Shown here one piece after another: positions 9,661 through 45,971 of a stretch of 58,673 nt of DNA (position 1 is the stretch's first letter; the number at the start of each line of letters is the position of its first letter). The position numbers and the translations under genes were made by a program. Source of the stretch: Clostridia bacterium (GTDB lineage: Bacteria > Bacillota > Clostridia > Oscillospirales > CAG-272); NCBI GenBank assembly GCA_017399105.1, contig JAFQEJ010000018.1, positions 1-58,673 on the forward strand. The letters run 5' to 3'. The notes beneath the pieces were generated by a model that saw nothing but the letters and a program-made list of their open reading frames with translations, searched no databases and had not been told where the DNA came from.

Positions 9661-9695
9661 GGGGAGGATGATTTTTACGATCATCCTCCCTTTTG
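9661..9695 (+). terminator. Rho-independent terminator after the Mn-catalase gene
   Basis: GGGAGGATGAT-ttttacg-ATCATCCTCCC followed by TTTT. Confidence 0.75.
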
Positions 9696-9793: not shown

Positions 9794-12514
9794 ATGAAAA
9801 AAGTATGTACATCGGGTATCGCGCTGATTCTTGTTTTGCTCATGCTGTTGCTTGCAGGATGTGAGAGTGATACAGGCAGTGATGAAACAGAAGCAGAAAC
9901 AGATACCGTTGCTTCGGTCAGCAGCGAGGTTGACATTACCGGCTACAAGCTGATGAGAAGCGATGTAAGCTCGGACGAGGTGCGTGACAGCTATGTTCTG
10001 GTCAAGAAGATGGCACGGGAACTCTGCGGCGTTGAGCTGGAAGTGGGCACCGATTATAAATCGGAGGATCCTGCCAACCGTACCGAAAAGGAGATCATCA
10101 TCGGTCATACCAATCTTCCCGAGGAAAATGCTGTTTACGAAACGCTTGCCGAGGGAGAGTATGCGATCACACAGAGCGGCAGCAAGATCATTATTGTCGG
10201 TTATACCGACACGGAGACCGTTTATGCCGTCAACCGTTTTCTGGAGCTGACTATGGGATACAATAAGGATAAATATGAAAATCAGCCGATCGGTACATCG
10301 GTGCTGAATATTCCCAACGAGAAGCAGGCAGTTGAAATGCCGTCGTTTGAATCAGGCAGAGTGATTTCTGCTATTCCCGCGATGACAAGTGAAGTTATGA
10401 AGTCTTCCGAATTCAAGCTGAACGGCTGTAAGAAGGAGGGCGACAATATTCACTGGACGAATACCGGTACGGCGGTGGCTGATATCGACACGGGAGAAGG
10501 AAGCTTCCGTATAGAATTTACGGTGGATATCGAAGGCGAAAATATGCCTACCATACAGTTATTTACATATTTTAATAATGCGGAGCATATCTGCATCGGT
10601 ATTTCGGACAGCTTTGTGCGTATCGGAAGAGCGACCTATGAGCGCGGCGGAGCCAATTTCACGGGTGACACCAAGCACTATACCTTCCGCATGGATGTAC
10701 ATCCCGACTCGGGGCGCATGCAGTATTTTGTGAATGGAAAATTCCTCGGCGAGATGAATATTGGTGAGGCGGATGATCCGCTGACCGCTCACTCCAACTT
10801 TGCGCTGGCAGCAGTCGGCGACAAAATTGATGTAACGATTTCGGATATCCGCTGGGAAAACATCGATGACATCGGAGAGAGACGCTACGATGCGCCCAAG
10901 GTGCTGACTGCTGCTGACGATATCTATCCCAAGTCGGAGAAGGCGCCCGGCGATGTGATTTATGTGGTTGAAGGTACAACAGCGTCCAATGAGAATCTGT
11001 TGACCATCGCGACTCTGCAGGGAAATGTCAATCGCACAACCCCCGAAATTTTTATGGATTACCGCAACTACAATCTTGACCACCATCATATGAATATTGT
11101 GGAAGAAGAGGCTTATATTGAGATCCTTCGGCAGAAGGGCAGAACGGTGGAAAACGCCGATATAGAGGAGCTTCTTGTCAAGTATGCTGACCGATACAAA
11201 GGTGTTATTGTGGGAGATGCCTTCGCTACCGTATATGGTGAGAATGTGGTTACCTCTCTTTGCGGTGTGCTTGATGCAGTATATCTGACAGAAAAGCAGT
11301 ATGAGTCGCTGAAAAAACAGATCAAAAAGGATGTGCTTTTCCGCATTGATGCCTATTGGGAATCTCCGGTAGATGCATATATGTGGGTATGGAATACTTA
11401 TGGAGATCTGTTCTCGGATAACATTCTCTTCCATACGCCTTCTATGATTGAGCAGACCGGTCACAATTCAAGAGCATGCCGTGATTATGCGGTCATGTCA
11501 CGTGCTTTTACCTTCTATACACATGGCGTTGAATGTGTGGAGGACTATGATTTTTATATGAATCTGTTTGCCACACGCGCCGCCAACTCGGGCATTGTCG
11601 GATTCGGCGGAGGATGCTTCCCCGAATTTGAGATGTTCCAGGTGGCAGGTCAGTTTGCCAAGTTCTGGACTTACGGTTTCTCCACACCGAACATGTCGCT
11701 TTTCAACAGTCTTGAAGTAGGTGAGCTGAAGCAGAAAGCTCCCACATCGGGTGTACAGCTTGAGAATGATACGGTGTATGTAGCATTTGATATGTCGGAA
11801 GGTGACAATCTGTCCTGGAACTATCACCTTTGGGCACAGAATTTTTCCAATGAAGCAGGACGTGCTGCTTATCCCAAGGGATACTCGCTTTGCGGTGCGC
11901 TCTATTATGTTGCACCTGCACTGATTGAGTATTTTTATGATATTGCTACGGTTAACGATTACTTCTTCCTTGACGGCGGAAGCGTTTCCAATGTGGGATC
12001 ACCCGATTCATATGCTCTGATGTACAAGGATGATGACCGTGAAGTGATCATGAAAGAGATGCTCTCGGTGCTCAATCATGTCTGTGAGAAAACTGATATA
12101 ACTGTTCTTCGTGCGATCAACAATATTTCGGATGAAATGACTCTTAGATTTGATGAAGCCTGCCCCAAGATTACGGCGCTGTTCTCTTCCTACGGTAACA
12201 CAACCTATTCTACCGGCGGAAGCGGAGGAAAATATGCGGATTCTATTAAAATGGTGGGTGATATGGTACGTGTGCGCTGTCATTTGACCAATTTCCAGGC
12301 GGATCTCGGGAAACAGCTTAAAACGCTCGCCAAGCAGGTTAAATCGGATGATGGCATTGTTTTTGCAAAGACCTTTATATATGCAAATTCGGTACTTTAC
12401 GATATTGCAGATCTGAAGAAATATACCGATGAGCTGGAATCTTCGGGTAAGACGATCGTCTATGTGCGTCCCGATGAATATGCGGCGCTCTACAGAGAAT
12501 ACGCATCAAGATAA
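9794..12514 (+). CDS. Large lipoprotein A (906 aa) of unknown function, with a shared ~100-aa N-terminal module
   Basis: Signal peptide with LAGC lipobox, then a Ser/Thr/Glu-rich linker. Residues ~50-160 align with the N-terminal modules of lipoproteins B and C (Y.l..SD...EI.IG.TN....YAVNrFLE). The remainder has no recognisable catalytic motif. Confidence 0.6.
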   Translation: MKKVCTSGIALILVLLMLLLAGCESDTGSDETEAETDTVASVSSEVDITGYKLMRSDVSSDEVRDSYVLVKKMARELCGVELEVGTDYKSEDPANRTEKEIIIGHTNLPEENAVYETLAEGEYAITQSGSKIIIVGYTDTETVYAVNRFLELTMGYNKDKYENQPIGTSVLNIPNEKQAVEMPSFESGRVISAIPAMTSEVMKSSEFKLNGCKKEGDNIHWTNTGTAVADIDTGEGSFRIEFTVDIEGENMPTIQLFTYFNNAEHICIGISDSFVRIGRATYERGGANFTGDTKHYTFRMDVHPDSGRMQYFVNGKFLGEMNIGEADDPLTAHSNFALAAVGDKIDVTISDIRWENIDDIGERRYDAPKVLTAADDIYPKSEKAPGDVIYVVEGTTASNENLLTIATLQGNVNRTTPEIFMDYRNYNLDHHHMNIVEEEAYIEILRQKGRTVENADIEELLVKYADRYKGVIVGDAFATVYGENVVTSLCGVLDAVYLTEKQYESLKKQIKKDVLFRIDAYWESPVDAYMWVWNTYGDLFSDNILFHTPSMIEQTGHNSRACRDYAVMSRAFTFYTHGVECVEDYDFYMNLFATRAANSGIVGFGGGCFPEFEMFQVAGQFAKFWTYGFSTPNMSLFNSLEVGELKQKAPTSGVQLENDTVYVAFDMSEGDNLSWNYHLWAQNFSNEAGRAAYPKGYSLCGALYYVAPALIEYFYDIATVNDYFFLDGGSVSNVGSPDSYALMYKDDDREVIMKEMLSVLNHVCEKTDITVLRAINNISDEMTLRFDEACPKITALFSSYGNTTYSTGGSGGKYADSIKMVGDMVRVRCHLTNFQADLGKQLKTLAKQVKSDDGIVFAKTFIYANSVLYDIADLKKYTDELESSGKTIVYVRPDEYAALYREYASR

Positions 12515-12637
12515 AAATAACATGAATATCACAAGACCCGGCGGATATCACATCTGTCGGGTTTTGTTATGGCATATTTGTATAAAAAATACAGTTGAAA
12601 TTCAGCATTATGACTAATTTAAAGTTAAAATGAAATG

Positions 12638-12666
12638 TTGACAATGTTAGATTTGTGTGATATAAT
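12638..12666 (+). promoter_or_regulatory. Perfect consensus promoter TTGACA-17-TATAAT for the DeoR gene
   Basis: gTTGACAatgttagatttgtgtgaTATAATgca. Confidence 0.55.
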
Positions 12667-12693
12667 GCAATTAGAATAAAATGGAGAGTGAAT

Positions 12694-13431
12694 ATGAATA
12701 CACGCCAGCAGGACATTATCAGCTTACTTGAACAGCGCGGGGAGATGACCATCAAATCGCTTGCCGAGACCTTCGGTGTCACCGAGATGACCATTCACCG
12801 CGATCTTGATTATCTGGAAAAGAAGAACTATCTATTTAAAAAGCGCGGTGCCGCTGTTTTTGTCAACAGCCATGACAGAGAAAGCCGCAGCTTTTATGCG
12901 GATGAAAAACGCAGCATCGGACAGAAGGCAGCCGAGCTGATCAAACCCGGTCAGTCAATTCTCTTCGACAACAGCACAACAGCACTTGAAACAGCGCGTT
13001 TTCTTGATGGAATCGCCGGGCTGACTTTCTATACCACCAATCTGGAAACCGCGGCAATTCTGGCAAAATACCCGAATACCATCATGTACTGCAGCGGCGG
13101 ATATTATTTTCCCGATTCCAAGGGTTTTATCGGAAAACAGACAGAGACATTTGTGGAGAGCATTCATGTGGATCTTTGTGTGATTGGTGCCAGCGGTATC
13201 GATATTGAGCACGGTATCACAGGTCCATATCCCATGCACACTGCGCTTCAGCGCAAGATTATCGATGCAGCCGATTACCGTATTCTTACAGCCGATCATT
13301 CCAAGTTCGGAAAGGCAGCCATTGAAAAGATTGCCGATCTTGACGAGATTGACTGCATTGTTACCGACAGCGGTATTCGGCCTGAGATTTCGGAGGAATA
13401 CGGAAAGCATACGCGAATCATTCTGGCGTAG
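12694..13431 (+). CDS. DeoR/GlpR-family transcriptional regulator
   Basis: N-terminal DeoR HTH (IISLLEQRGEMTIKSLAETFGVTEMTIHRDLDYLEK) and a C-terminal DeoRC sugar-phosphate sensor domain. GGAG sits 7 nt before the ATG. Confidence 0.85.
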   Translation: MNTRQQDIISLLEQRGEMTIKSLAETFGVTEMTIHRDLDYLEKKNYLFKKRGAAVFVNSHDRESRSFYADEKRSIGQKAAELIKPGQSILFDNSTTALETARFLDGIAGLTFYTTNLETAAILAKYPNTIMYCSGGYYFPDSKGFIGKQTETFVESIHVDLCVIGASGIDIEHGITGPYPMHTALQRKIIDAADYRILTADHSKFGKAAIEKIADLDEIDCIVTDSGIRPEISEEYGKHTRIILA

Positions 13432-13531
13432 GTTAAACAGTAAACAACAGCACGGGACTGTTGAAATAAAATCAATTCTTGGAAAGGATGGGTGCATCAT
13501 GAATTCCCGCTGTCATGATGCAGAGATTCAC

Positions 13532-15025
13532 ATGAAAAAATCATTGTTAAAGCCGCTTTCTTCTTTGATCTTGGCAGCGCTGATGATGCTTGGATCCTTT
13601 GCGGCATGTTCAACAGAAGATGGAGGAGCGCAGACTCCTTCGGACGACACAGCGGTCGATCAGACTGCAGCTGATACAACTGCGGCTCCCGAAGAGACCG
13701 AGCTTGTTTATGCAGCCGACATTCCCTCGGGAACCAACTATAACGGCTATAACTTCCGCGTTGCGGTTGCCGATCTGACCACCATTGTCTGGTGTGATAC
13801 CGACTTTTCGATCCTTGAGCCTTCGGCGGATATTGTAGAAAATGCCGTTTATGAACGTAAGACCAAGGTTGAAGGTCAGCTCGGTGTGGAAATCACTCCG
13901 GTTTACTATCTGGGCGACGTTGCAAATGAAATGAGCAAGAGCATTCAGGCGGATGAAAATGCTTTTGATATCGGTTTTGCACCTCCTAAATTTTCGGGTG
14001 CGAGAACGACTGAGGGCTGGTTCCTTGATCTGAATAATTTCCCCAACATCGATCTGAGCGATCCCTGGTGGGATCAGAACTCGGTGGAGGATCTTTCAAT
14101 TAAGGGAAAGCTCTTTACCGTTGCTGGTGATATCGGATATAACTATAAGCGTTCGACTTCGGTGCTTTTCTTCAACAAGAAACTCATCGAGACTAAGCAG
14201 CTGGAGAATCCCTATGATCTGGTTAACAACAATCAGTGGACACTGGATAAGCTTTTCGAGATGGCAGACAACATTTCGGAGGATCTGAACGGTGACTCTG
14301 CAATTTCTCCTGCCGACGACCTGTACGGATTTGCAAACTGTCCCGATACGCTCAATCAGATGATGGTGGGTGCCGGTGTCAATGTTACTGAGTTTGATTC
14401 GGAGGGTACACCCACACTCTGCTTCATGGATGAACGGACTACCTCTGTTTTTGAGAAGATCACCACATTTATTTACGATGATGCCAAGTCCTTTAACTGG
14501 GAGGCTGTCGGCGTCAATGCAGGTACCAAGTTTACCAATGACCAGCTTCTCTTTATGCCTACCGAATTCTGGGTTATTACAACCTATCGCGATATGGCGA
14601 CCGATTTCGGTGTGCTTCCCATGCCCAAGTATGATGCATCTCAGGAGAACTACGGACATATCGTTAACGCTCATGTCGCAGCACTGCTCATGATTCCCAG
14701 AACCAACACAGACAATAATATGACCGGTCATGTGGTTTCTGCGCTTGGTGCTGAGGGAAAGAATCTTATCACTCCCGCATATTATGAGGTTGCGCTCAAG
14801 ACCAAGATGTCCCGCGATACCGAGTCTGAGGCGATGTTTGACATTATTTTTAATTCGATCGACTGGAACGCAGGTGTAATTTACAACTGGGGCGGCTTTA
14901 TGGATACCACACGCAGCATGGTTGGTGCTAAGAATACCGATATCGCTTCTACATACGAGCGTATGGTGAAGCGAATCAACAAAGATATCGAGAAGGTACT
15001 CGAGGCATACAGCAAGCTTGGTTGA
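13532..15025 (+). CDS. Large (~497 aa) extracellular solute-binding lipoprotein (LplA-like ABC SBP family), orphan
   Basis: MKKSLLKPLSSLILAALMMLGSFAACS lipoprotein signal and an Asp/Thr/Ala-rich linker. It is the right length and composition for a family-1 large SBP. An alternative start lies at 13499. No permease or ATPase genes are nearby. Confidence 0.6.
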   Translation: MKKSLLKPLSSLILAALMMLGSFAACSTEDGGAQTPSDDTAVDQTAADTTAAPEETELVYAADIPSGTNYNGYNFRVAVADLTTIVWCDTDFSILEPSADIVENAVYERKTKVEGQLGVEITPVYYLGDVANEMSKSIQADENAFDIGFAPPKFSGARTTEGWFLDLNNFPNIDLSDPWWDQNSVEDLSIKGKLFTVAGDIGYNYKRSTSVLFFNKKLIETKQLENPYDLVNNNQWTLDKLFEMADNISEDLNGDSAISPADDLYGFANCPDTLNQMMVGAGVNVTEFDSEGTPTLCFMDERTTSVFEKITTFIYDDAKSFNWEAVGVNAGTKFTNDQLLFMPTEFWVITTYRDMATDFGVLPMPKYDASQENYGHIVNAHVAALLMIPRTNTDNNMTGHVVSALGAEGKNLITPAYYEVALKTKMSRDTESEAMFDIIFNSIDWNAGVIYNWGGFMDTTRSMVGAKNTDIASTYERMVKRINKDIEKVLEAYSKLG

Positions 15026-15026
15026 T

Positions 15027-17234
15027 ATGAAAAAACGCATCACGGCACTGATTATCGCATGTTTTCTTCTGCTGTGCTCCTGTGACAGTGGAATACAGCA
15101 GGAGACGCTCTCCGACACACTTCTGATATCCGAGGCTGAAACCGAGCTGCCGAAGCTTTCACTTGACGGCTATACGGTGGTGATCAGCGGCGATGCTTCC
15201 GAGCGCGAGAGTGAAGCGGCGAAGGCACTGTACCTGGCGCTGGGGGAGGTTTGTGAGGGAATTGCGCTCTCGGACGATTTCGACGGCAAGCAGGACAACA
15301 CCGGTCGGGCAGAAATTCTTGTGGGCGCGACCAACCGTCCTCAGTCACAGGCTGCACTGGTGGAGTGCGGTGAATTTGAGTTTATTATCCGCAGTGCGGA
15401 GAACAAGCTTGTCATCGCGGCAAAGCGTCCTGAAACTATCGAATATGCGGTGAATTATTTTCTTGAGCACTGTACTGTTCGAGGCAGCGTTGACCAATCG
15501 ATGTCAATACTGCTCTCATATACAGAGCTTGAGGGGATTGAAGCCTACGATTATAATGAGGTTTATAATATGAACTGCACCCGTCCTACCGAAGATATTG
15601 TCTATCCCAGAAGTGATCTTCAGGCATCGCTTGTCGAAACCGAAACACGCAGTGTTTCGAAATCCGACATTTATACCGGCGGCCCTCAGTTTATCGCGAA
15701 GCTTTATACAGAAGCGCTCTCCCGCTCGCCTTCCGGTGAAGAATTTGCTGATGCCACAGCACGAATCTCCGAGAAGGGTTGTACAGTGGAAACACTGACA
15801 GCTTTGGCATATGAGATTTTTGCTTCGGATGAATATAAAAATCACAATCTCACCCGGGAAGAATCCTGCTTCACCCTCTACCGTGCCATCTTCTCACGCG
15901 ATCCTTCGCTTGAAGAGTTGGAGACTTTTGGAGGAAATGCCGCAGACTCTGTGTCATCGCTTACTGCGAGTGATGAGTTTGCGGATATGATGCAGGGGAT
16001 TATCGAAGGACCGTACTTCTGGGGCATTAATCAGGAAGAGGTCTATACAGGAAGTAGCGTGATTCTCGCATCGCAGCTTCAGAAGCAGATCTCAAACTAT
16101 ACTGTGACCAAGCTGCCGCAGGGAACGCTGGTGCTTATGGATACGGTGCTGGTGCTTCCAACGGGTGCAATGCTTGTCACTGAGGGGGAACCGACACATT
16201 ATGCGAAGATGGCGCGCTTTCTGCGACCGGCAGAGAAGGGAAGCCATCACCATCTGATTCAGATGGGAGAAGAATGTGAGATCAAGTCGATTTTTATTGA
16301 CGGCAATATGTCGGCATTTGAGCTCAATGAAACTGCAAACGGAAGCAATACCGTGATTACGGGAAGCTACTGCAATGTTACATACTGCCGCGTGTCCGAT
16401 TCCACCAGCCACCAGAATGTATGGGCGTTGGACGGCACAAGCGAGATGTACATCGCACATAATCTGATCACCGGTTATGCATCCGATCACAATAAGACCT
16501 GGCAGGACGGTATTTCCTGTCTGGCAACCGGATCGGTCATCGAGTACAATGATATCGTCGATACGACAGACGGTGCGATTGCGGTGTTCCGTTATATCGA
16601 AAACTATGCGGCATACGATCATATCCGGGCGCAGAATTCGATCATTCGTTATAACAACATCTTCAATGCAGGTAATTCCGCTTATGTTGCACATGACTAC
16701 GAGACGGTGAATTATTTTAAGATTGGCAATCCTCCTGAATATCCTGCCAATATGACCGGACTTGTCAGCTATGAAAATAACATCTGGACATCCTGGAGAG
16801 CGCATTATCATATGGTGGTTACCTTCTCTACGGTACCGTGGCAGGGACCTGTGGTCAATGACCGTGCCATCGGCGGTTCCTTCTATAACAATTCCTCACC
16901 CGACGGATGCTTTGCGCTCTGTGCCTGCGGAATCAATGTGGACAAGGTTACCGATGCGGCGGTACGGGGCAACAGCTTTCTCTTCTATCTCGGTGACTGG
17001 TGCCGATCTGCGCCGGGAGTGGGAGCTCGTGCATACAGCATCAATGAGGAGAACAGCGGCGGCGACTTCCAGGCTGGCTATGTGAATATGCCGATTGCAA
17101 CAGAGACTGCGACCTTCATCAACACTCTTGCAGGAGGGCTGACGCTGGAGGCTGCCGATACGGTTGAGCTGCAGGGATGGAAGCTGACCGAGGGAAAGGT
17201 GACCATTCCTCTGGAACGCTTTCAGGCAGAATAG
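15027..17234 (+). CDS. Lipoprotein B: shared N-terminal module + DUF4214-like repeats + right-handed beta-helix + C-terminal Cys cluster
   Basis: MKKRITALIIACFLLLCSCD lipobox. The N-module aligns with A and C. Two repeats resemble DUF4214 (FIAKLYTEALSRSPSGEEF.., CFTLYRAIFSRDPSLEEL..). Beta-helix rung-like repeats follow (NLITGYASDH.., EYNDIVDTTDGAI.., IRYNNIFNAGNSAY), then CFALCACGIN...DWCRS. Its ATG at 15027 lies 1 nt after the SBP stop. Confidence 0.55.
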   Translation: MKKRITALIIACFLLLCSCDSGIQQETLSDTLLISEAETELPKLSLDGYTVVISGDASERESEAAKALYLALGEVCEGIALSDDFDGKQDNTGRAEILVGATNRPQSQAALVECGEFEFIIRSAENKLVIAAKRPETIEYAVNYFLEHCTVRGSVDQSMSILLSYTELEGIEAYDYNEVYNMNCTRPTEDIVYPRSDLQASLVETETRSVSKSDIYTGGPQFIAKLYTEALSRSPSGEEFADATARISEKGCTVETLTALAYEIFASDEYKNHNLTREESCFTLYRAIFSRDPSLEELETFGGNAADSVSSLTASDEFADMMQGIIEGPYFWGINQEEVYTGSSVILASQLQKQISNYTVTKLPQGTLVLMDTVLVLPTGAMLVTEGEPTHYAKMARFLRPAEKGSHHHLIQMGEECEIKSIFIDGNMSAFELNETANGSNTVITGSYCNVTYCRVSDSTSHQNVWALDGTSEMYIAHNLITGYASDHNKTWQDGISCLATGSVIEYNDIVDTTDGAIAVFRYIENYAAYDHIRAQNSIIRYNNIFNAGNSAYVAHDYETVNYFKIGNPPEYPANMTGLVSYENNIWTSWRAHYHMVVTFSTVPWQGPVVNDRAIGGSFYNNSSPDGCFALCACGINVDKVTDAAVRGNSFLFYLGDWCRSAPGVGARAYSINEENSGGDFQAGYVNMPIATETATFINTLAGGLTLEAADTVELQGWKLTEGKVTIPLERFQAE

Positions 17235-17252
17235 ACTAAACAATCATTCAGA

Positions 17253-17290
17253 AAGGGCTTAAAGAAAACAAACTTTAAGCCCTTATTTAT
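17253..17290 (+). terminator. Hairpin between the two paralogs
   Basis: AAGGGCTTAAAG-aaaacaaa-CTTTAAGCCCTT followed by ATTTAT. Confidence 0.6.
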
Positions 17291-17307
17291 ACGAGGTGAT
17301 TTATTCA

Positions 17308-18966
17308 ATGAAATTCTTACGTCCCACATCGGATATTGTCTACCCCAAGAGCGATATCATTTCCTCTCTTACAAAACACGAGAGCATCAGCGTTTCCAAG
17401 TCGGATATTTACACCGGCGGCCCGCAATTTATCGCCAAGCTGTATACCGAGGCGCTCTCCCGCTGTCCTACCGGTGCAGAATTTGCTGATGCAACCGCTC
17501 ACATCAAGGAACAGGGCTGCACCAAGAAAATGCTGGCGGTGCTTGCCTGCGAGATCTTCAGCTCGGATGCGTATCAGAAGGCGGCACTGACCCGCGATGA
17601 AATATGCTTTACCCTCTACCGTGCGATTCTCTCCCGTGATCCAATGGGGGAAGAGCTTGCTTCCTTCAACGGTGATGCTGTGACTGCTGTAAAGGCACTG
17701 ATTGCGGGTGCTGAGTTTGATGCATTGATGGAGGGGATTATTAAAGGTCCCTACTTCTGGCATGGAACCAACTACGAGTGCTATACGGGATCGCAGGTGA
17801 TGCTTGCTTCCGAGGTACAGAAGCTGCTGAGACCGGATACGGTCACCGCACTTCCGCAGGGGACGCTTGTGATTGTTGATGAAACGATCAATATGCCCAT
17901 CGGTGCCAAGCTGATCACTGAGGGAGAGCCGACCCATTACGCCAAGATGGCGCGTTTTCTGCGTCAGCGTGATACCGAAAAATATTATGATCTTCTCAGA
18001 CTCAGCGACAGCTGCGATATCCGCTCAATTTTCGTGGACGGCGCGCTTTCGGAATATCATGACAAGCTGATTCCTCCGACTCCTGTGATGGTGCTGGGCA
18101 ATTCAACCTCGGTGACAGACTGCCGTGTGTCCGATTCGATCAGCAGCGTGAATATTTTCATCGGTGCACAGCATGATGTTTATATTGCCCGCAATTTGAT
18201 CACCGCTTATGCTTCGGATCATGATCGAACCTGGCAGGATGGCATCCATAATAAGGCTTACGACGCGCTGATCGAATATAATGAAGTTGTAGATTCGACC
18301 GATGCGCCGATTGTGACCTTCCGTTATTTGCTGAATACACCCGATTACGATCACAAGCGGGCGCAAAATTCGATCATCCGCTTCAATAAGATTTTCAATG
18401 CGGGTAATTCTGCCTACTGTGCGCATGATTTTGAGACAGTGCATTATCTGAAGGTAGGACAGTCTGCCAAGGACGATGCTAATATGACAGGGCTTGTCAG
18501 CTATCATAATGAAATATGGTCATCCTGGCGCGCGCATTTTCACATGATTGCAACCTTCTCTACCGTGCCGTGGCAGGGCTCGGATAATAACGATATGGCA
18601 CATGGAGGTTCCTTCTACAACAATTGCACACCAGAGGGATGCTTTGCCCTCTGTGCCTGCGGAATCAATGCAGATAAGGTCCAGAATGCGGCAATTCGCG
18701 GCAACCGCTTTACCCTATATCTTGGTGATTGGTGCCGTTCCGATCCGAGATTGGGCAAAAGAGCCTACAGCGTGCACGCTGATAACTGCAGCGGTGATTT
18801 TCAGCCGGGATATAGTGATATGGCGATGTATACAGAGAAGGAGACCTTTATTATTAATCTGATTGGCGGACTGCAGCTTGAAGCTGAGGACAGCGTTTTA
18901 CTTGAGAGATGGGAGCTTTGCGAGGGCAGAGTAACCATTCCGATCGAGCGTTTTATGTCAAGATAA
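17308..18966 (+). CDS. Signal-less paralog B' of lipoprotein B (DUF4214-like + beta-helix + Cys cluster)
   Basis: About 60% identity to residues ~185-738 of B over its full length. No hydrophobic N-terminus (MKFLRPTSDIVYPKSD...). GAGGTGA sits 8 nt before the ATG at 17308. Confidence 0.55.
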   Translation: MKFLRPTSDIVYPKSDIISSLTKHESISVSKSDIYTGGPQFIAKLYTEALSRCPTGAEFADATAHIKEQGCTKKMLAVLACEIFSSDAYQKAALTRDEICFTLYRAILSRDPMGEELASFNGDAVTAVKALIAGAEFDALMEGIIKGPYFWHGTNYECYTGSQVMLASEVQKLLRPDTVTALPQGTLVIVDETINMPIGAKLITEGEPTHYAKMARFLRQRDTEKYYDLLRLSDSCDIRSIFVDGALSEYHDKLIPPTPVMVLGNSTSVTDCRVSDSISSVNIFIGAQHDVYIARNLITAYASDHDRTWQDGIHNKAYDALIEYNEVVDSTDAPIVTFRYLLNTPDYDHKRAQNSIIRFNKIFNAGNSAYCAHDFETVHYLKVGQSAKDDANMTGLVSYHNEIWSSWRAHFHMIATFSTVPWQGSDNNDMAHGGSFYNNCTPEGCFALCACGINADKVQNAAIRGNRFTLYLGDWCRSDPRLGKRAYSVHADNCSGDFQPGYSDMAMYTEKETFIINLIGGLQLEAEDSVLLERWELCEGRVTIPIERFMSR

Positions 18967-19065
18967 GGAAAATCTGACAACGTTTTTGACCGATTGGAAT
19001 TGACAAAAAGATCAAACAGCGGTATAATAATGAAAATTGAGTTCATAGTAAGGAAGGATTTGCCT

Positions 19066-20694
19066 ATGAGAAGATTTTCTGTTATACTGCTGTTTTTCTG
19101 TCTTTTGTGGGGATTGATCTCCTGCGGCGAGTCATCGTCAGATGGCACGGAAAGCGAAATACCACCTGATCATGCACAGCCGGTCGTTGAAAAGTTCTAT
19201 CAGATTGTGCGCTCGGATGATTCGAGCAAGACGCTGACAAGTGCAGCGGTGGCATTGAAAAACGCGATTCGTGATAGGGCAGGCTATGATATTGTGCTGA
19301 CCACCGACTGGGACAAAAATCCGGTTGAGGAATACGAGATTCTGATCGGTGAGACCCTTCGAGCTGAGTCGGATGTTGGTGAGCTTGATGCTTCCACCTT
19401 TGTTGTGCGTGAAGTCGGAACAAAAATCGTTATCACCGGCGGCAGTGAAAATGCTGTTATCGCAGGTATCAATTACTTTATTGAGGAGTATGTGAATAAA
19501 ATGGAGAATACAGGAAAGTTTGCACCCCCCACGGGGATCGATGTGAGCGATTCAACGCTCAACCGTCTGCTTGCTCTGAAAACAGATGGATCCTCCAAGA
19601 AGAAGGCATACAGCGATTACATCAAAACATACACCGAGAAGCAGCTTCTCAGCTTCGATGATCTGGATACAAAGAGCCTTCGTACAGCAGATGGCGTGGA
19701 GATCGACTCCACTTATATGCGCGAAGGCAGTGGTGCCATGCGCTGGACTTTGGATAAGGATTACAATGATCTTGTACAGATGATGCAGGTTTCTCGCAAT
19801 GCCTTTGAATTTGCGGTAAAGGATAAGAGAACGACTACATTGAAATTCTGGCTCTTTATCAATGATACCGATCTGATATCCTGCGACCATGATTCTCAAT
19901 ACGGAATCCAGGAGAATCAGGCAACCTTCTTCATCCGTGTGACCGACAAAAACGGACGTACTTACTGCTGGAATCATACCATCACCGATAACGGCTGGCA
20001 CGAAATTGAGCTTTCCTTCAATGTACACAACGGTGTTGATGCCGATTTTGATTATGATCACATCACCGGCTTTTGGATCATGTTCTCGGGTAAAGCTGGG
20101 GCGGTTGTAGAACTGGACGACCTGCGTGCTGTGGAATATACAACCGATTACAAGCCCGAGGCAGTTCCCGCTGAATGGCGCGTGATTACAGATGCGGAAT
20201 ATGATGCGCTTGATGGTGCGATTGTCCAGGAATGGTACGGTACATATTACGATACTGAGGATAAGGTACAGGGCAAGTCTTCGCTTTGCTGTGAAGGTGA
20301 TGCTTCGGTTAATGATTTCCGTTTGATCATTGCAAACACCAGTATCCCCCTGGATTATGATCAGGATGTGCTGGTTTTCTGGATGAAACTGGAGAAGTTT
20401 GCTTCCTGCAATGGACTCTTCCTTGAGCTGAATCATGTACAGGATCAGCATGAGTATGAGAAGTCGGTTTCTCTGGATGAACTGAAGGCATACGGTCTTG
20501 ACAAGGAAAACGAATGGTGTCAGGTTGTCATTCCGCTCACCGATTTCAAACAGAATCTGAAGCCCGATGTATACGGCAAGGGCGAGGATATTGTGATGCA
20601 GAATTTTCGCTTTGTTATGAATCCTGTTTCCGGTATGGATTATAAAGTTCATATGGATCGCGCATATTTTACCACAAAGGATGCGCTGAATTGA
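19066..20694 (+). CDS. Lipoprotein C: shared N-terminal module + two putative beta-sandwich (CBM-like) domains
   Basis: MRRFSVILLFFCLLWGLISCG lipobox; AGGAAGGA sits 7 nt before the ATG at 19066. The N-module aligns with A and B. The C-terminal half is Trp/aromatic-rich and strand-like (KFWLFINDTD..., VLVFWMKLEKF...). Confidence 0.5.
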   Translation: MRRFSVILLFFCLLWGLISCGESSSDGTESEIPPDHAQPVVEKFYQIVRSDDSSKTLTSAAVALKNAIRDRAGYDIVLTTDWDKNPVEEYEILIGETLRAESDVGELDASTFVVREVGTKIVITGGSENAVIAGINYFIEEYVNKMENTGKFAPPTGIDVSDSTLNRLLALKTDGSSKKKAYSDYIKTYTEKQLLSFDDLDTKSLRTADGVEIDSTYMREGSGAMRWTLDKDYNDLVQMMQVSRNAFEFAVKDKRTTTLKFWLFINDTDLISCDHDSQYGIQENQATFFIRVTDKNGRTYCWNHTITDNGWHEIELSFNVHNGVDADFDYDHITGFWIMFSGKAGAVVELDDLRAVEYTTDYKPEAVPAEWRVITDAEYDALDGAIVQEWYGTYYDTEDKVQGKSSLCCEGDASVNDFRLIIANTSIPLDYDQDVLVFWMKLEKFASCNGLFLELNHVQDQHEYEKSVSLDELKAYGLDKENEWCQVVIPLTDFKQNLKPDVYGKGEDIVMQNFRFVMNPVSGMDYKVHMDRAYFTTKDALN

Positions 20695-20738: not shown

Positions 20739-20770
20739 GGGGTTGACGTTATAAAAGCGTCAACCCTTTT
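20739..20770. terminator. Bidirectional terminator between lipoprotein C and the AI-2E transporter gene
   Basis: GGGTTGACG-ttataaaag-CGTCAACCC flanked by A/T runs on both sides. Confidence 0.8.
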
Positions 20771-34342: not shown

Positions 34343-34639
34343 GATGTGCTCCTTTAAAAAAAGCATATTTAAAATTTGTGAATTATTATGCATAAGCTGC
34401 GGTTATGTTGAATCAAAATTCATTATGCCGCAAAAATCTGCCCGCTTTTTAAGAAAGCTGGCGAAAATTATTTCCTCACGAAGATAAAAAAGAAAGCTGC
34501 GTAACGGCAGCGGGGAGAGTGGATCGTTGTCGCTCAATCTGTTGGCATGAATAAATCAACACTAAATAGCATTATATCATACAGCGAAAAAAATGTCAAT
34601 ATTATAGCTGAAAAGATATTATCAAATTAAAGCATAAAA

Positions 34640-34823: not shown

Positions 34824-36491
34824 TCAGTTATCGTAAACCAGAACCGCCGGAGGACAGCAGCAGTCAAGCTCGGTCAGATGCAGTCCGCGCTCATAGGCTT
34901 CACGTACGACAGCCATGACAATGCAATGGGATGAAATGCAGTAAAGTCGGAAGACAGGCTGATTTTTTAAATGCGCCGGTGGCTTCAGCGGAATACTGTC
35001 AAGGAAGCGGCTGTAGGCATAGCCCAGCACTTCGGTCAGGCTGGTGGTTGCCGCCGATATGAAGCTGTTGATTTCATTGTATTCAGTTCGCGAGAGAATG
35101 GCAATGTCAGGCTTTAATGTGCCATTATCACGCCTCAGCATGCCGAAGGTAATATATCGGTCAATTGTCTGCAGCATGCGCTCATCCAGTTCACCGTTCT
35201 CAGGTGTAACGCCGATGTGTGTGCACCAGAGCAGCTTGTGCATGTCTCTGTTGAGAAAATAGGAATCAAAGCCTGCGGCGGAAGCACGGTAGGGCGAATC
35301 ATAGAAGGGGGTATCAAATTCATAAAGATCGAGGCATTTTGTTCCTCTGTAATCAAGAAGCCGCGAACTGCGGTGACCGCCATGAATCAAATAGTTGCTG
35401 ATTTGATTATCCTTGGCTTCATCGTAAACGGCGGGATAATGGTATGCTACAGCCGACCAGCGGCCACCGTCCTTTCTTTGAGGATAGCTGTTGGGATCAT
35501 TGAAGGATTCCTGCAGCTTCGGGCAGCCGTAAAATTCAAAATCCTGCAGTGCCTTCAGTGTTGCATAACGCTCCAGCTTTATTTTTTGCAAAGGTGTCAG
35601 TGTTTGATAGGAATCCAATTTCCGTATATTGCAGAGAAGTGTGTCCATTGCTGCCCAGAAGGTGTCGAAATGCTCCTTGACAAAGCGCTTCTGCGGCTCA
35701 AAGCGACTGTACCTGTCCTCGGGATGATAAATGATAAAATCGGTATAGATACGACCGCTGTCCTGTCTCACCATTAGCTCGCCGTCAACGAGTCTATCAA
35801 TGACAGGCTCAAGATATACGGTGGGGATACCTAACACTTCTGCAATTTCGGTGGGGAGCAGAGGCTTATCGTAGGCGACAATCAGAATGTTCTGGGCAAT
35901 GAGATCGCCGTTGACAAGTGTGTTCGGTTCACCCTTCCGACCGTCAGAGCCTCCGAAGGTCATTGCCAGTTTGCCTGGGATATATTGCTTCTTATCCATA
36001 TGTTCCTGTCCTTTCGTCAGTCTGTTCCTGAGCTGCCCCCGTCCTGCAGACAGTCTGCTTTTAACCGTTCCCTCGGGAATGCGGAGTGTTTTTGCAATCT
36101 CGGCGACGCTCTCACCTGCGAAATAGTGACGCAGCAGTACCTCGCGGCTCAGCTTTGCCAGATAAAGCAGTTCACGGCGAAGTTCTGCAGCTTCGTCGGA
36201 TTCGCAGACTGTATCAAAAACCTGATCGTCCTCATAAACATCGCCAATGGCATCCATGTTCAGAATCGGCGGCTGTCGGTATAATCTGCGAAGCCGGTCA
36301 TTTGCCTTGTGCATCAGCGTATTTGCCAGCCATGTCCGCGGATACTCAATTTCGTCTCCATGTTTGAGACAGGCAAGTGCTGCCAGCATGGTATCCGAGA
36401 CCAGGTCTTCCGCATCCTGCCGATTCTTTGATTTGGTGAGGGCGAGGGCAAAGAGATCGTCAAAGTAGGTCAGCAGCTCGGTTTTGTTCAT
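34824..36491 (-). CDS. ECF-like sigma-70 family sigma factor fused to a ~380-aa C-terminal domain of unknown function (555 aa, no TM segment)
   Basis: N-terminal ~170 aa has sigma region 2 and region 4 features (LRHYFAGESVAEIAKTLRIPEGTVKSRLSAGR). The long hydrophilic C-terminal extension contains a second HTH-like stretch. GAGGT sits 7 nt before the ATG at 36491. Confidence 0.7.
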   Translation of the reverse strand: MNKTELLTYFDDLFALALTKSKNRQDAEDLVSDTMLAALACLKHGDEIEYPRTWLANTLMHKANDRLRRLYRQPPILNMDAIGDVYEDDQVFDTVCESDEAAELRRELLYLAKLSREVLLRHYFAGESVAEIAKTLRIPEGTVKSRLSAGRGQLRNRLTKGQEHMDKKQYIPGKLAMTFGGSDGRKGEPNTLVNGDLIAQNILIVAYDKPLLPTEIAEVLGIPTVYLEPVIDRLVDGELMVRQDSGRIYTDFIIYHPEDRYSRFEPQKRFVKEHFDTFWAAMDTLLCNIRKLDSYQTLTPLQKIKLERYATLKALQDFEFYGCPKLQESFNDPNSYPQRKDGGRWSAVAYHYPAVYDEAKDNQISNYLIHGGHRSSRLLDYRGTKCLDLYEFDTPFYDSPYRASAAGFDSYFLNRDMHKLLWCTHIGVTPENGELDERMLQTIDRYITFGMLRRDNGTLKPDIAILSRTEYNEINSFISAATTSLTEVLGYAYSRFLDSIPLKPPAHLKNQPVFRLYCISSHCIVMAVVREAYERGLHLTELDCCCPPAVLVYDN

Positions 36492-42272: not shown

Positions 42273-45200
42273 ATGGAATTTCTTGCTGAGAGTATGCTGA
42301 ATATCACTCTGTCCATGTCGGTGATTATCCTATTGATGCTGATCTTCTCTCGCATCGCCGCAAAAAAGCTCACTGCGCGCTGCCGTTATCTGCTGTGGTG
42401 CCTGGTGATTCTCCGCCTTGCCATTCCCGCTGTGGGGCTGCGTGCTCTGCCGCCGCTTTTTACGGTGACACTGCCCGAGACGGTGATTGTGGAGGAAGAT
42501 ATCGCCGAAACGCTGCCCGAGTTGAACGAGCCGCCCTACAGCGTGATGCCACAGCAGCCGTTCGAGGGCAGTGCGCAGGATATCATTGCTGCCCCGCCTT
42601 CAGAGGATATACCGAACATCCCCAATTATACACAGAATATCACGCCCGATACCACACAGGGGATGCCGGGGGAGATAATAACTCCGATTATCCCCGAAAC
42701 CTTACCGGTTACGATGCCTGCGCCCGAGGAGAGCAATATTACCCTCGATCTTACGGTTGTTCTTCGTATCGTCATGCACCTTTGGGCTGTGATTGCCCTC
42801 GGAAGCTTTGCCTTCCGTATGCTGTCCTATCTGCACTTTGTGCTTCGCATGAAAAAGGACAATACAGTCTGTACAGATGAGCGTATTCATGAAATATATG
42901 ACAGCCTCTGCACCAAAAATTCTATCCGACGCAGACCGAGGCTCTGTATGAATGACGGCGTGACTTCACCAATGGTGTATGGTTACTTTAAACCGATCAT
43001 CATTCTCCCTTCGGATATTAAGGATGAATTTGCTCTGCGCGGCATCCTTTTCCATGAGCTTGTGCACTATCGACGCGGTGACCTGTACATGAAGCTGATT
43101 GCACAACTTGCCCTGTCACTGCACTGGTTCAATCCGCTTGTATATATTGCATCCGACCGTCTTGCACAGACGGCAGAACTTGCCTGTGATGAGCGGGTGC
43201 TTGCAGCATGCAGTATGAGCGATCGCGTAGATTACGGTAATGTGATGCTCGATATCATCAAGCAAAGCAGCGAGGAGCGCATCACAAGCAGCTCGATGAG
43301 CACGCACTTCAATCCCCGTACCGACGCGGTGAAGGAGCGCTTCCGCAATATCCTCGATATGCGGCCGAAAAATTTTGCTCTCTGGCTGGTGGTGCTTCTG
43401 ATGATTGCCTGCATTGTTACGGGAACCCTGGTGGCATGCAGCTTTAGCGGCGATGCTGACGGTGAGCAGAACAGTGAAGGGAAGGATGCCGTTACCACCG
43501 AAGCCGATACCGAGTCTGAGGAAACCGAAAGCGCGGAGACGGTGACGAACATTCCAGAGACAGGGGATGACAGACTTCCTCCCGATGTCTTTCCTGTCAC
43601 CGGTATCGACAGTGCGGTGATTCTGACCGGATATTATAACCTCAGCGAGAAAGCATTGGCACAGCTTTCGGCGTCAAGTGAGCATGCGAATAAAGAACTT
43701 GAAAATATGATCCTGATCGGATTGATGGTCAGCGAGGATGACGAGGTTCTCGCGGTTTACAAAACGCTTGGAGGAGATTCCAACCGTTATGCAGCCTATA
43801 CTGGCGGTGAACAGTTCTATTTAAAGGATGCCTATCCCGGTATAAACACGATTGTTCCCACGCAGGAAATGGCGGTTGGATGGGGCATCAATGCTACCCT
43901 CATTTGTGATTCTCAGCAGATTCTGATGGATGAAGCGGGAGACGGAAATTTCTTCTTTGAACAGGGCTGGCTTTTCCAAAAGCGTCATTATCAAGGTACC
44001 ATTCACACCTTCCGTCTGCCCATCAGCGAAGCTTATGTCCCTGACCTCGAGATTCAACGCTCCGAGCGCGTCTTTACCCATAATTGGCAGGAAGCAATGA
44101 TGACGCTGATTCCGGGCGGTGATATCGGAGGCGACGAAAATTGTCTTTATGTGTTTATCACCTACGATATGGCTCAGACCTGGTATGTGACTGCGCTTCC
44201 TGCGCCCGGTGTCTGTGTCAGAGGCAGCGCGAATTATGACGAGTACGGCAATCTCCATGTCTATGCCATAGGCGAGGGAAATTCCGATTACAATCGCTAC
44301 TTCAGCTACAATGGCGGCTTCCGCTTTGTGATGGTGGACGATATGTACCTCGGAGAGGGCACCGCCGTGGAGGTAAAGACGCCGAACGAACACTATTCAG
44401 CATCGGTGAACGGCTTCGCTTATGCCACGCTCTATGATATGATGAAGCAGGGATATCCGTTCCCCGCGCATGGCGATGCCAGTGAGGAATATATCCTCGT
44501 CGGTCCGGGACCGGCGGGCGGTGAGAGTGTGATACTCAAGCCGGGTGATGCACTTTATGATGATGTGTCGGCACTTCTTTACCGCCGCTCCATGCGTATT
44601 TATATCAGCGATGAATGGCAGTATCCCATCGCGGTTGCCTCCGGCAATTCACCGACCATGGGGCAATTCGCGCTGCGCTGGAATCCCGGAAATGCTTCGG
44701 GAGCGGGCTGGAATACATACGATATTATGAGCGGTGACGGAGCAGGCTACAAGAAGATTACCTTCTGCGAGCAGGGGGCGATCATTACCTTTGATACCAA
44801 CCACCGCAGTGTGGAAGGTGGGACTGCCACAAGTCTGTACCGCATTCTCTGCGATCTTACCGAGCGTGGTGAAGGTGTGCGTTCCGACGAGCTTGAAGTC
44901 TACCGCGATGAGCTTCGCGCCCGTGTGATGCTGCTGGTGGACGGTGTTGAGCTGCCGATCCGACTGACCTTTGCAGCGGAAGATAAATCTGCGATTCTTG
45001 TTCAGACCGATACGCCCATCAAATATGACAACATTCTGTCGTATATGCAGATTATCATCGGCGATACATATTCCCGCTTTGACACAATCGATGAGCTGAT
45101 CGCGGCACAGAATGAGGAAACCTGGCAGGAGTTCTACGAGTACGCACTGATGGTGCCCTATGTCTGGCATATCGATTATCTCACTGCCATCAAATCGGGG

Positions 45201-45971
45201 GATACCGCAAGACTCGAGCAGATGAGCGGCGGTCTGACTGCAGGAATGTACGACAGCTACAAGTCACTGAAATTTGCCGAGGGGGACTACTTCGAGATCA
45301 TTCATCTGGGCGATCTGAACAAGCCCTTTTACTGGCATGTTACCATCACCGAAAGTGAAGTCCCCGGACTTCCGGCGGGCGATTATGTGTTCCGTCTTGA
45401 TGAGGGCATCAGAGGTGTCACTCTGAATCGGGAAAATGCACAGTCTGTCGAGATTCACAATTACGGTGTGAGAAGCGATCTGCTCACATGGCTCGGTACC
45501 TGCGGCATGTATGAAATCCCCGATTGGGGAGATTGGGACGCGGCGGTTACCGAGGGACGGCTGGATGAAAGCATTTATGCGGTTGCCTTCGACTATCTCT
45601 CCTGCCGCTACGGATCTATGACCGCAGAGCAGATCAATGACTACGGTTACCGTGCTTTCGGTATCGATGAGCTGTTCTCACATCTTGGGCTGGATGAGAA
45701 TTCCTACGAATATGTCAATGGCAAATACGGTGTGGCAGGGCATGGCGGCGAGATCTGGAGCTATGACATTGTGGACTGTAATTTTGTCGGCGAGTCGGCA
45801 GCGGTCACGGTGCAGTTCTGGGCAGATTGGTCGAAAACAATTCCGTCTCACAGGATCACCTACCGCTTCGGTATTGATGTTCCAGAGGACGGTGGACTTC
45901 CCGTCAACAGTATCGTCGGCATCACCTATGAGAACAGAGGCGCATACGAACCGGCACATACTGCAGTATAA
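42273..45971 (+). CDS. BlaR1/MecR1-like M56 zinc-metallopeptidase sensor with an ~830-aa extracytoplasmic C-terminal domain of unknown function (1232 aa)
   Basis: N-terminal transmembrane helices, the HExxH motif HELVHYRRGD, and the WFNPL/CDERVLA blocks typical of M56. A Pro-rich insertion sits between the first transmembrane helices. After the last TM, the ~830-aa C-terminus has no recognisable domain. Confidence 0.75.
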   Translation: MEFLAESMLNITLSMSVIILLMLIFSRIAAKKLTARCRYLLWCLVILRLAIPAVGLRALPPLFTVTLPETVIVEEDIAETLPELNEPPYSVMPQQPFEGSAQDIIAAPPSEDIPNIPNYTQNITPDTTQGMPGEIITPIIPETLPVTMPAPEESNITLDLTVVLRIVMHLWAVIALGSFAFRMLSYLHFVLRMKKDNTVCTDERIHEIYDSLCTKNSIRRRPRLCMNDGVTSPMVYGYFKPIIILPSDIKDEFALRGILFHELVHYRRGDLYMKLIAQLALSLHWFNPLVYIASDRLAQTAELACDERVLAACSMSDRVDYGNVMLDIIKQSSEERITSSSMSTHFNPRTDAVKERFRNILDMRPKNFALWLVVLLMIACIVTGTLVACSFSGDADGEQNSEGKDAVTTEADTESEETESAETVTNIPETGDDRLPPDVFPVTGIDSAVILTGYYNLSEKALAQLSASSEHANKELENMILIGLMVSEDDEVLAVYKTLGGDSNRYAAYTGGEQFYLKDAYPGINTIVPTQEMAVGWGINATLICDSQQILMDEAGDGNFFFEQGWLFQKRHYQGTIHTFRLPISEAYVPDLEIQRSERVFTHNWQEAMMTLIPGGDIGGDENCLYVFITYDMAQTWYVTALPAPGVCVRGSANYDEYGNLHVYAIGEGNSDYNRYFSYNGGFRFVMVDDMYLGEGTAVEVKTPNEHYSASVNGFAYATLYDMMKQGYPFPAHGDASEEYILVGPGPAGGESVILKPGDALYDDVSALLYRRSMRIYISDEWQYPIAVASGNSPTMGQFALRWNPGNASGAGWNTYDIMSGDGAGYKKITFCEQGAIITFDTNHRSVEGGTATSLYRILCDLTERGEGVRSDELEVYRDELRARVMLLVDGVELPIRLTFAAEDKSAILVQTDTPIKYDNILSYMQIIIGDTYSRFDTIDELIAAQNEETWQEFYEYALMVPYVWHIDYLTAIKSGDTARLEQMSGGLTAGMYDSYKSLKFAEGDYFEIIHLGDLNKPFYWHVTITESEVPGLPAGDYVFRLDEGIRGVTLNRENAQSVEIHNYGVRSDLLTWLGTCGMYEIPDWGDWDAAVTEGRLDESIYAVAFDYLSCRYGSMTAEQINDYGYRAFGIDELFSHLGLDENSYEYVNGKYGVAGHGGEIWSYDIVDCNFVGESAAVTVQFWADWSKTIPSHRITYRFGIDVPEDGGLPVNSIVGITYENRGAYEPAHTAV

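Follow-up and report, generated by a model that had tools for sequence, protein, structure and literature searches.

A predicted glycosidase-type accessory domain behind the lipid anchors of a six-gene clostridial locus

Introduction

Why should an accessory domain of glycosidases stand between a lipid anchor and unrelated hydrolases? This question is raised by a locus of six genes (A, DeoR, SBP, B, B2 and C, all on the plus strand) in contig JAFQEJ010000018.1 of an uncultured gut Clostridia bacterium; the whole stretch of 58,673 nt is referred to here as the window. Genes A, B and C encode lipoproteins that carry copies of one N-terminal module, DeoR encodes a regulator, SBP a solute-binding lipoprotein, and B2 a paralog of B. 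Gut and rumen Clostridia encode thousands of lipoproteins annotated as “hypothetical”, and a GH20b-related start would help to annotate more than 8,000 protein clusters. The locus also joins DUF4214 and beta-helix proteins, an associated repeat domain and a divergent solute-binding protein in one recurring neighbourhood. We consider it probable, on balance, that these genes form a Gram-positive glycan-utilisation set with three strong promoters, in which the module is a membrane-proximal pedestal.

A module shared by three lipoproteins

Pairwise BLASTP comparison of A, B and C gave 27.5–30% identity over 128–156 aa with E-values of 1e-7 to 1e-10, in a six-protein database and with most alignments taking in the signal peptides. 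An independent hidden Markov model (HMM), trained on 80 copies of the module from external proteins unrelated to these, matched A at residues 45–154 (E 1.6e-27), B at residues 45–152 (6e-24) and C at residues 45–145 (3.7e-28), with no fourth match among 365 six-frame segments of the window. The ~110-aa N-terminal module that the initial annotation had described in these three proteins is thus significant by both approaches and is found nowhere else in the window. The copy in A spans residues ~43–162 (9920–10279), and that in B, defined by the external HMM and by an AlphaFold2 (AF2) model, spans residues ~42–157 (15150–15497) with low-confidence linkers on both sides (residues 11–40 and 173–182). 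The copy in C (residues ~45–145, 19198–19500) is the nearest of the three to Pfam NAGLU_N (7.7e-5). The lipoprotein assignment of A, B and C also holds: signal peptides with a lipobox cysteine were read from the sequences of A (LLAGC), B (LLCSC) and C (LISC), as well as of SBP (SFAAC).

The three copies are mutually 24–30% identical, and external members of the family are equally distant from them. Because the window copies are no closer to each other than to external copies, they do not represent a recent, locus-specific building set; judged by sequence, use of the module is a lineage-wide habit rather than particular to this locus. When 1.84 billion cluster representatives were searched with a module profile, 8,701 proteins passed E ≤ 1e-3, of which 3,871 also passed E ≤ 1e-10, whereas the three-sequence alignment, a query short for the word index, matched one fragment in a 5.8-billion protein set. 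Copy number and position were derived from the best 149 of the 8,701 proteins, ranks that are biased to multi-copy proteins. In this sample the first copy begins at a median residue of 50, a lipobox-like signal is present in 132 proteins, and each protein carries 2–8 copies spaced ~28 aa apart. The partner domains recorded for 74 members were mostly other than glycosidases (Lactamase_B 21, Exo_endo_phos 19, Alk_phosphatase 7, GDPD 3, Metallophos 2, GH16 2, DUF4838 2), and the earlier view of the module as a reusable, mobile domain is supported. One protein from a Lachnospiraceae metagenome-assembled genome (MAG), MCR4728637.1 (P0056 / P0210; 3,270–3,306 aa), has eight module copies distributed along its length.

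Predicted fold and relationship of the module

The AF2 model of the module, based on a 34-sequence alignment, reached a predicted local distance difference test (pLDDT) score of 86.6 and a predicted TM (pTM) score of 0.80, with the topology b-a-b-b-a-b-b-a. When this model was searched with Foldseek, nearly all of the top 50 matches were domains of the GH20b, GH67N, NAGLU_N or GH115-N type (TMq 0.5–0.63), and the predicted alpha/beta fold could be superposed on the N-domains of GH20, GH67, GH84 and GH115 structures. At the sequence level, the module profile gave weak matches to PDB sequences, chiefly GH84 and GH67 N-domains (E 0.06–0.8). Pfam NAGLU_N scored 22.9 bits on the copy in C and 12 bits on that in A and gave no match in B (cutoff 28.3), and none of the window copies reaches the gathering score of any family in the GH20b/GH67N/NAGLU_N group. 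Among the 80 isolated external instances, Pfam matched NAGLU_N in eight, GH67N in five (best 4.5e-9) and GH20b in four (6e-6). We take GH20b, Glyco_hydro_67N and NAGLU_N to belong to a single Pfam clan.

Based on the predicted fold and on the sequence matches of part of the family, the module is, as modelled, a diverged form of the alpha/beta accessory domain, without catalytic function, that is located at the N-terminus of GH20, GH67, GH84, GH89, GH115 and GH138 enzymes. The same two lines of evidence link it to the GH20b, GH67N, NAGLU_N and GH115-N domains, and the suggestion in the initial annotation that the module may be undescribed is therefore not upheld. The match to a known domain does not extend to the full proteins being characterised enzymes: B, B2, C and SBP match none, and A matches a putative family only. 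The GH20b domain has been described as non-catalytic, as always N-terminal to the catalytic domain and as needed for stability (PMC4449183). The window module shares the N-terminal position of GH20b, GH67N, NAGLU_N and GH115-N domains; it also resembles them in having no catalytic motif, and members of its family give sub-threshold to significant matches to their Pfam models. Unlike GH20b-type domains, the family has its own EILxGxTNR motif, stands behind a lipobox in tandem arrays of 1–8 copies, and has as its fusion partners metallo-beta-lactamase-fold, EEP, alkaline-phosphatase, GDPD, metallophosphatase, beta-helix or binding domains. The invariant pattern of the family is D47...E60-I-L-x-G64-x-T66-N-R, and from the wider motif D...EIL(I/V)GxTNRxES we suggest that the module may have a conserved binding patch.

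In none of the three window proteins does the module lie directly ahead of a glycosidase barrel. It is followed in B by a linker, a DUF4214-like domain and a beta-helix, in C by binding-type repeats, and in A by ~220 aa and the GxGYxYP N-repeats; in other family members it precedes MBL, EEP, AP and GDPD domains. The module occupies a new architectural role, in which a known domain type sits between a lipid anchor and unrelated hydrolases.

Proteins B and B2

Gene B (15027–17234) encodes a 735-aa lipoprotein. In its AF2 model (pLDDT 85.6, pTM 0.84), the module is followed in order by a linker, a DUF4214-like helical domain and a right-handed beta-helix. The helical domain (residues 220–327, 15684–16007) is formed by helices in the model and gave a sub-threshold match to Pfam DUF4214 (PF13946; 17.5 bits, cutoff 23.2), a family that is recorded for seven homologs. 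Titles and abstracts of the DUF4214 literature gave no lead on function. The beta-helix (residues 345–720, 16059–17186), which is defined by the model and the family alignment, matches no Pfam or NCBIfam entry, and the B profile finds no relative among PDB sequences. NCBIfam models also gave no match for A, SBP, B2 or C, nor for B as a whole.

An alignment of 42 family members from several phyla identified strongly conserved residues. These are Q221, K225, E229, R233 and R286 within the DUF4214-like domain, and in the beta-helix Y484, D494, N508, D512, D515, Q536, N543 and N584, along with R397 and R400, are invariant or nearly so. D494 and D515 are 21 residues apart, which corresponds to about one coil; we presume this spacing to be that of the catalytic acids of GH28. 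Invariant acids on adjacent coils are also a feature of enzymes with the pectin-lyase fold, such as AlgE-type mannuronan C5-epimerases/lyases, GH28 polygalacturonases, PL31/PL6 alginate lyases and phage tailspike depolymerases. B is, however, only 9–15% identical to such enzymes, has no sequence-level match to a solved structure, Pfam or CAZy-type model, and differs from them in the obligatory DUF4214 helical domain, with invariant residues of its own, ahead of the helix.

Gene B2 (17308–18966) encodes a 552-aa paralog of B residues 179–735. The two proteins are 59% identical over 557 aa by BLASTP, which together with the beta-helix in the model of B bears out the paralog pair that had been proposed. 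B2, which is identical to protein P0032, has neither signal peptide nor module. Its start is probably at 17308, and an in-frame stop just upstream leaves no room for a signal peptide; B2 is predicted to be cytoplasmic. With a dN/dS of 0.066, it is under selection. Pairs of an exported and a signal-less B protein recur in the window and its relative L006 (L numbers denote stretches from other genomes), in Paenibacillus baekrokdamisoli (L017) and in a sheep-colon Clostridia MAG (L026). Signal-less beta-helix proteins were seen beside exported ones in distant lineages at L017 9529–11130, L026 9595–11229 and L023 8001–9464.

The core of DUF4214 and helix was found in herbivore-gut Clostridia, Paenibacillus, Actinomycetota, Ktedonobacteria, Ignavibacteria and Proteobacteria, among others, in a scan of one genome per species. 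B and B2 thus belong to a widespread, uncharacterised family that combines DUF4214 with a pectin-lyase fold. The cysteine cluster noted earlier (CFALCACG...WC, B residues 628–659, 16908–17003) is present in both B and B2; its positions are kept in only 8–18 of the 42 family members, and we rejected it as a family-defining metal site. The cluster, which might form disulfides or a metal site, is lineage-specific and is odd in a cytoplasmic paralog such as B2.

Protein C and its repeat domain

Gene C (19066–20694) encodes a 542-aa lipoprotein in which the module is followed by two B-associated repeat domains. The C-terminal 390 residues match no Pfam family, with a faint match to SGBP_B_XBD only, and C has no relative among PDB sequences. 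The repeats became apparent through an iterated search that was seeded with the repeat at the N-terminus of a B-type protein of Paenibacillus eucommiae. This search gathered three copies in L017, two in L019 and one in L024, as well as both domains of the C ortholog. An HMM of external repeats, restricted to copies of Paenibacillus and of other Clostridia, matched C with a whole-protein E-value of 7.9e-10, its sole match in the window. Repeat domain 1 (residues 207–356, 19684–20133) was recognised by this HMM with an independent E-value (i-E) of 2.8e-8. Repeat domain 2 (residues 391–496, 20236–20553) is more divergent, with an i-E of 0.27 on its own, and in the L006 ortholog it reached 2e-23 after iteration. 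Comparison of one half of C with the other by BLAST was not significant, so that the likeness of the halves emerges only via the external repeat family. C-type repeats gave scattered weak Pfam matches with no common family.

In Paenibacillus (L017 and L019) the repeats form part of the B protein itself, and in L009, L010 and L024 they are encoded beside B; proteins of 1,497 aa (L009) and 1,504 aa (L010), each with eight repeats, are encoded directly after B-type genes. Gene fusion elsewhere and gene neighbourhood therefore tie C to B. The repeat unit is ~150–170 aa long, lies outside Pfam and follows the pattern ..D..dkkEGs.S.. / LK.WLYi.D / GW.El.l.f /.vDDi.v. Its locations are 19684–20553 in the window, 6345–9545 in L017, 6861–9545 in L019, 9828–14321 in L009, 3538–8052 in L010 and 5451–6326 in L024.

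Protein A

Gene A (9794–12514) encodes a 906-aa lipoprotein composed of the module, an unassigned domain of ~220 aa and a GxGYxYP putative glycoside hydrolase region. Pfam analysis matched GxGYxYP_C at 5.9e-21 (75.8 bits, cutoff 27) and GxGYxYP_N_3rd at 1.3e-5 (25.7 bits, cutoff 24.4), and GxGYxYP_N scored 17.9 bits, below its cutoff of 23.9. A also matches PDB 3SGG (BT2193) with an E-value of 3.7e-18. For the GxGYxYP family, represented by BT2193 (PDB 3SGG), glycoside hydrolase activity has been predicted, and Glu272, Asp331 and Asp333 were proposed as catalytic (Rigden et al, 2014; PMC4071793). The residues of A aligned with these three are a glutamate in CFPEFEM, Glu669 and Asp671 (numbering counted from the alignment), so that one aspartate is replaced by glutamate. 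A resembles BT2193 in its match well above the GxGYxYP_C threshold, and the three aligned positions are acidic in both; unlike BT2193, it adds a lipobox, the module and the unassigned domain at the front. The family is known from Bacteroides polysaccharide utilisation loci (PULs), whereas A sits in a Gram-positive lipoprotein context. Much of what the initial annotation called a 700-aa unknown domain is therefore accounted for, and ~220 aa still match nothing: the middle region (residues 166–390, 10289–10963), which is present in all A orthologs, gave no Pfam match even at E ≤ 1.

We found 23 full-length orthologs of A. In L004, a B-family lipoprotein (41% identity) is encoded ~1 kb from an A ortholog (77% identity), and L007 has GxGYxYP fragments in the vicinity of a B ortholog. 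The surroundings of A in L004 are likewise of a glycan type but differ from those in the window. Between 5370 and 8958, beside the A ortholog, they include the B-family lipoprotein, a DUF4964/DUF5127/GtaA_6_Hairpin protein, NagA- and NagB-like genes and GH5.

The solute-binding protein, the regulator and their neighbourhoods

The SBP gene (13500–15025, alternative start 13532) encodes a putative, divergent family-1 solute-binding lipoprotein. Gene callers use a form of 507–508 aa, and the start is probably at 13500, which gives 508 aa. Pfam SBP_bac_1 scored 23.7 bits, below the cutoff of 26; paralogs are similarly weak, and no relative was found among PDB sequences. The regulator gene (12688–13431) encodes a DeoR-family protein with HTH_DeoR (1e-14) and the DeoRC sensor domain (1.6e-43) in Pfam, in agreement with its previous assignment. 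In NCBIfam it comes nearest to AgaR, GlpR and SrlR, without reaching the equivalog cutoff of any of them.

The whole locus was found on several metagenome contigs and in the relative L006 (85–93% protein identity), and as a unit it is kept only in close relatives (85% identity). Named homologs of the locus proteins are all “hypothetical protein” entries from Clostridia MAGs. Comparison with the locus in L006 indicated purifying selection on all six genes, with dN/dS of 0.03–0.09 (A 0.077, DeoR 0.034 and C 0.058, in addition to the value for B2 given above).

Of the gene set outlined earlier, the SBP-B pair recurs in other genomes but the place of A in the locus does not. Orthologs or paralogs of SBP lie directly 5' of B in L006, L008 and L012. 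In L008 an SBP ortholog (58% identity) is directly upstream of the B ortholog, and SBP paralogs (27–29% identity) are upstream of or near B orthologs in L012 and L007. The pair has a DeoR fragment ahead of it in L008 and an AraC regulator instead in L012, where no permease was found around SBP-B. A canonical SBP precedes B-type genes in L009, L010 and L017, with permeases upstream in L009 and L017. The order in L009 is SBP, B, the eight-repeat protein and GH38, with two permeases and a GH32/43 gene upstream; L010 has the same SBP-B-(8-repeat protein)-GH38 order in a stretch that begins at SBP. In L017, from Paenibacillus baekrokdamisoli KCTC 33723, permeases are followed by SBP, an epimerase/dehydratase, UxuA and two B genes. 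Because this neighbourhood also occurs in cultivable Paenibacillus, its chemistry is open to experiment.

Proposed function of the locus

From the domain identities, the fold relationship of the module, the gene neighbourhoods, the purifying selection on the six genes and the promoters, we infer a pathway in which enzymatic activity, the order of steps, regulation and the role of the module are conditional. B, with its invariant Tyr/Asp/Asp/Asp cluster on successive coils, would cut or modify a polysaccharide at the cell surface. C, whose repeats are of the same kind as those fused to B-type proteins in Paenibacillus, would help B, and A, as a GxGYxYP putative hydrolase, would trim the same or a related glycan. 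The SBP lipoprotein would capture oligosaccharides for an ATP-binding cassette (ABC) permease encoded elsewhere, and the signal-less B2 would repeat the chemistry of B on the imported oligosaccharides. DeoR would repress the unit until a sugar-phosphate intermediate appears. The module would be an autonomous membrane-proximal domain that follows the lipid-modified cysteine and a flexible linker, is present singly or in tandem, carries an enzyme or binding domain behind it and acts as a structural pedestal.

The regulator, solute-binding lipoprotein, lipid-anchored surface proteins and cytoplasmic paralog are features that the locus has in common with Gram-positive PULs. Unlike these, it has no permease or ATPase and, except for the putative GxGYxYP protein, no recognised CAZy member. 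C further resembles the surface glycan-binding lipoproteins of Bacteroides, as a non-catalytic lipoprotein of binding-type repeats with a faint SGBP_B_XBD match. The surface-anchored glycan apparatus proposed in the initial annotation agrees with the lipid-anchored extracellular proteins, the carbohydrate-type domains, the regulator and the binding protein; the part of that proposal that treated the module as an undescribed domain does not stand.

Several observations weigh against a glycan-utilisation set with the module as pedestal. A scan of large ORFs from 1.2 to 53.3 kb of the window recovered no BPD_transp_1 permease or sugar ATPase, in line with the earlier description of SBP as having no such partner, and the sole ABC system there is of the FecCD iron type, upstream of the locus; the uptake step would thus rest on genes unseen in the window. 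We found no activity shown for any member of the GxGYxYP, B or C-repeat families, and the paper devoted to GxGYxYP gives a prediction only. The enzymes encoded next to homologs elsewhere (GH38, GH32/43, GH127, UxuA with the epimerase/dehydratase, and a sulfatase) point to no single substrate. A orthologs at 77%, 51% and 48% identity occur in unrelated neighbourhoods, so that A may be independent of the rest of the locus, and beyond the promoter hexamers themselves no shared operator was detected in the three promoter regions. The EILxGxTNR motif lies outside the stretch that is aligned to the N-domains of GH84 NagJ and matched by Pfam NAGLU_N, and the known stabilising role may therefore not transfer to the module.

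Alternative explanations

The points concerning A and the operator lead to an explanation in which there is no common system at all: the module would merely be a standard N-terminal domain of the exported lipoproteins of this lineage, the adjacency of its carriers would be incidental, and A, perhaps with DeoR, would be unrelated to SBP-B-B2-C. Consistent with this, the 8,701 clusters that carry the module include many unrelated catalytic domains, A has a promoter of its own and orthologs in unrelated surroundings, L012 has AraC in the place of DeoR, and the three promoter regions yielded no shared operator. We nevertheless regard the absence of any common system as doubtful, since SBP is linked to B, and B to C, independently in more than one lineage, the DeoR fragment stands ahead of SBP-B in L008, and B-family genes lie close to A-type sequences in both L004 and L007. 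A somewhat different objection accepts the locus and questions its chemistry. B and B2 might be beta-helix binding proteins or adhesins and the locus one for adhesion or sensing rather than catabolism, given that B matches no CAZy-type family by sequence and that SBP, with no adjacent permease, could be a sensor. This we judge improbable: D494 and, one coil further on, D512 and D515 belong to a set of acidic and polar residues that does not vary across several phyla, a pattern typical of active sites; purifying selection on a cytoplasmic paralog that lacks a signal peptide would be senseless if the protein were an adhesin; and members of the family are found inside catabolic operons with permeases, UxuA, GH38 and GH32/43.

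The remaining alternative concerns the module alone, which could target its carriers rather than only support them, either by binding an envelope polymer (peptidoglycan, secondary cell-wall polymer or S-layer) or by co-assembling A, B and C. Its autonomy, its capacity for tandem arrangement and its fusion to unrelated enzymes would suit such a docking or anchoring function, for which the strongly conserved polar motif (D47, E60, G64, T66, N and R) could provide the binding site. The lipobox anchor, however, already explains how A, B and C are attached to the cell, the highest and most numerous structural matches are all glycosidase N-domains, and the sequence links run to GH67N, GH20b and NAGLU_N rather than to wall-binding families; docking is accordingly unlikely in our assessment. 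The glycan-utilisation set with a pedestal module is thus the explanation that we retain.

A bolder combination of claims is tentative: that the module was recruited from a glycosidase accessory domain to be the general membrane-proximal part of Clostridia surface lipoproteins and binds a ligand through its D/EILxGxTNR patch, and that B/B2 and the C repeats together constitute a new CAZyme family. If it were true, a module family of at least 8,700 clusters, unassigned in Pfam, would organise surface hydrolases, including phosphoesterases, at the Gram-positive surface, for example by binding a cell-envelope polymer. B/B2 and the C-type repeats would then make up a new family of carbohydrate-active enzymes that has a binding module of its own and whose members work in pairs, one extracellular and one cytoplasmic, in Clostridia, Paenibacillus and Actinomycetota. 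If the B-type proteins are enzymes, herbivore-gut microbiomes would have yielded a new carbohydrate-active family.

Promoters, boundaries and flanking genes

The locus is enclosed by two strong intrinsic terminators. The left one (9661–9691, plus strand; 13-bp stem with six GC pairs and a T tail) ends the upstream Mn-catalase gene, and the right one (20739–20767, plus strand; 12-bp stem with six GC pairs and a T tail) follows gene C. Promoter P1 (9709–9737), a perfect TTGACA-N17-TATAAT site with TG, precedes A, and promoter P2 (12638–12666), also a perfect consensus with TG, precedes the DeoR-SBP-B-B2 genes. A sequence scan recovered both of these promoters and both terminators, all of which had been reported at the outset, together with a third perfect promoter, P3 (19000–19028), ahead of C that had not. 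From the three promoter positions, the transcription units are likely to be A alone, DeoR-SBP-B-B2 and C alone. Perfect TTGACA-N17-TATAAT sites number six in the window, compared with a chance expectation of 0.01, and appear to be a habit of the source genome; those outside the locus are at 34599–34571, 39776–39748 and 46834–46806.

Both flanks are unrelated to the locus. Upstream are the Mn catalase, a HAD hydrolase and the FecCD-type iron ABC system, and downstream are an AI-2E transporter, an AraC regulator and a GH2 enzyme. Further along the window, two BlaR1/peptidase-M56 membrane proteins of 1,232 and 768 aa flank a serpin gene (Serpin 1.2e-75) in the region 42273–45971, 46899–48167 and 48257–50563. 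A protein of ~555 aa encoded at 34824–36491 has N-terminal sigma-70 regions 2 and 4 and a long unassigned C-terminal part. Sigma-70-type proteins of this size recur in related MAGs, with three in a row at L001 16630–21784 and one at L012 16583–18250.

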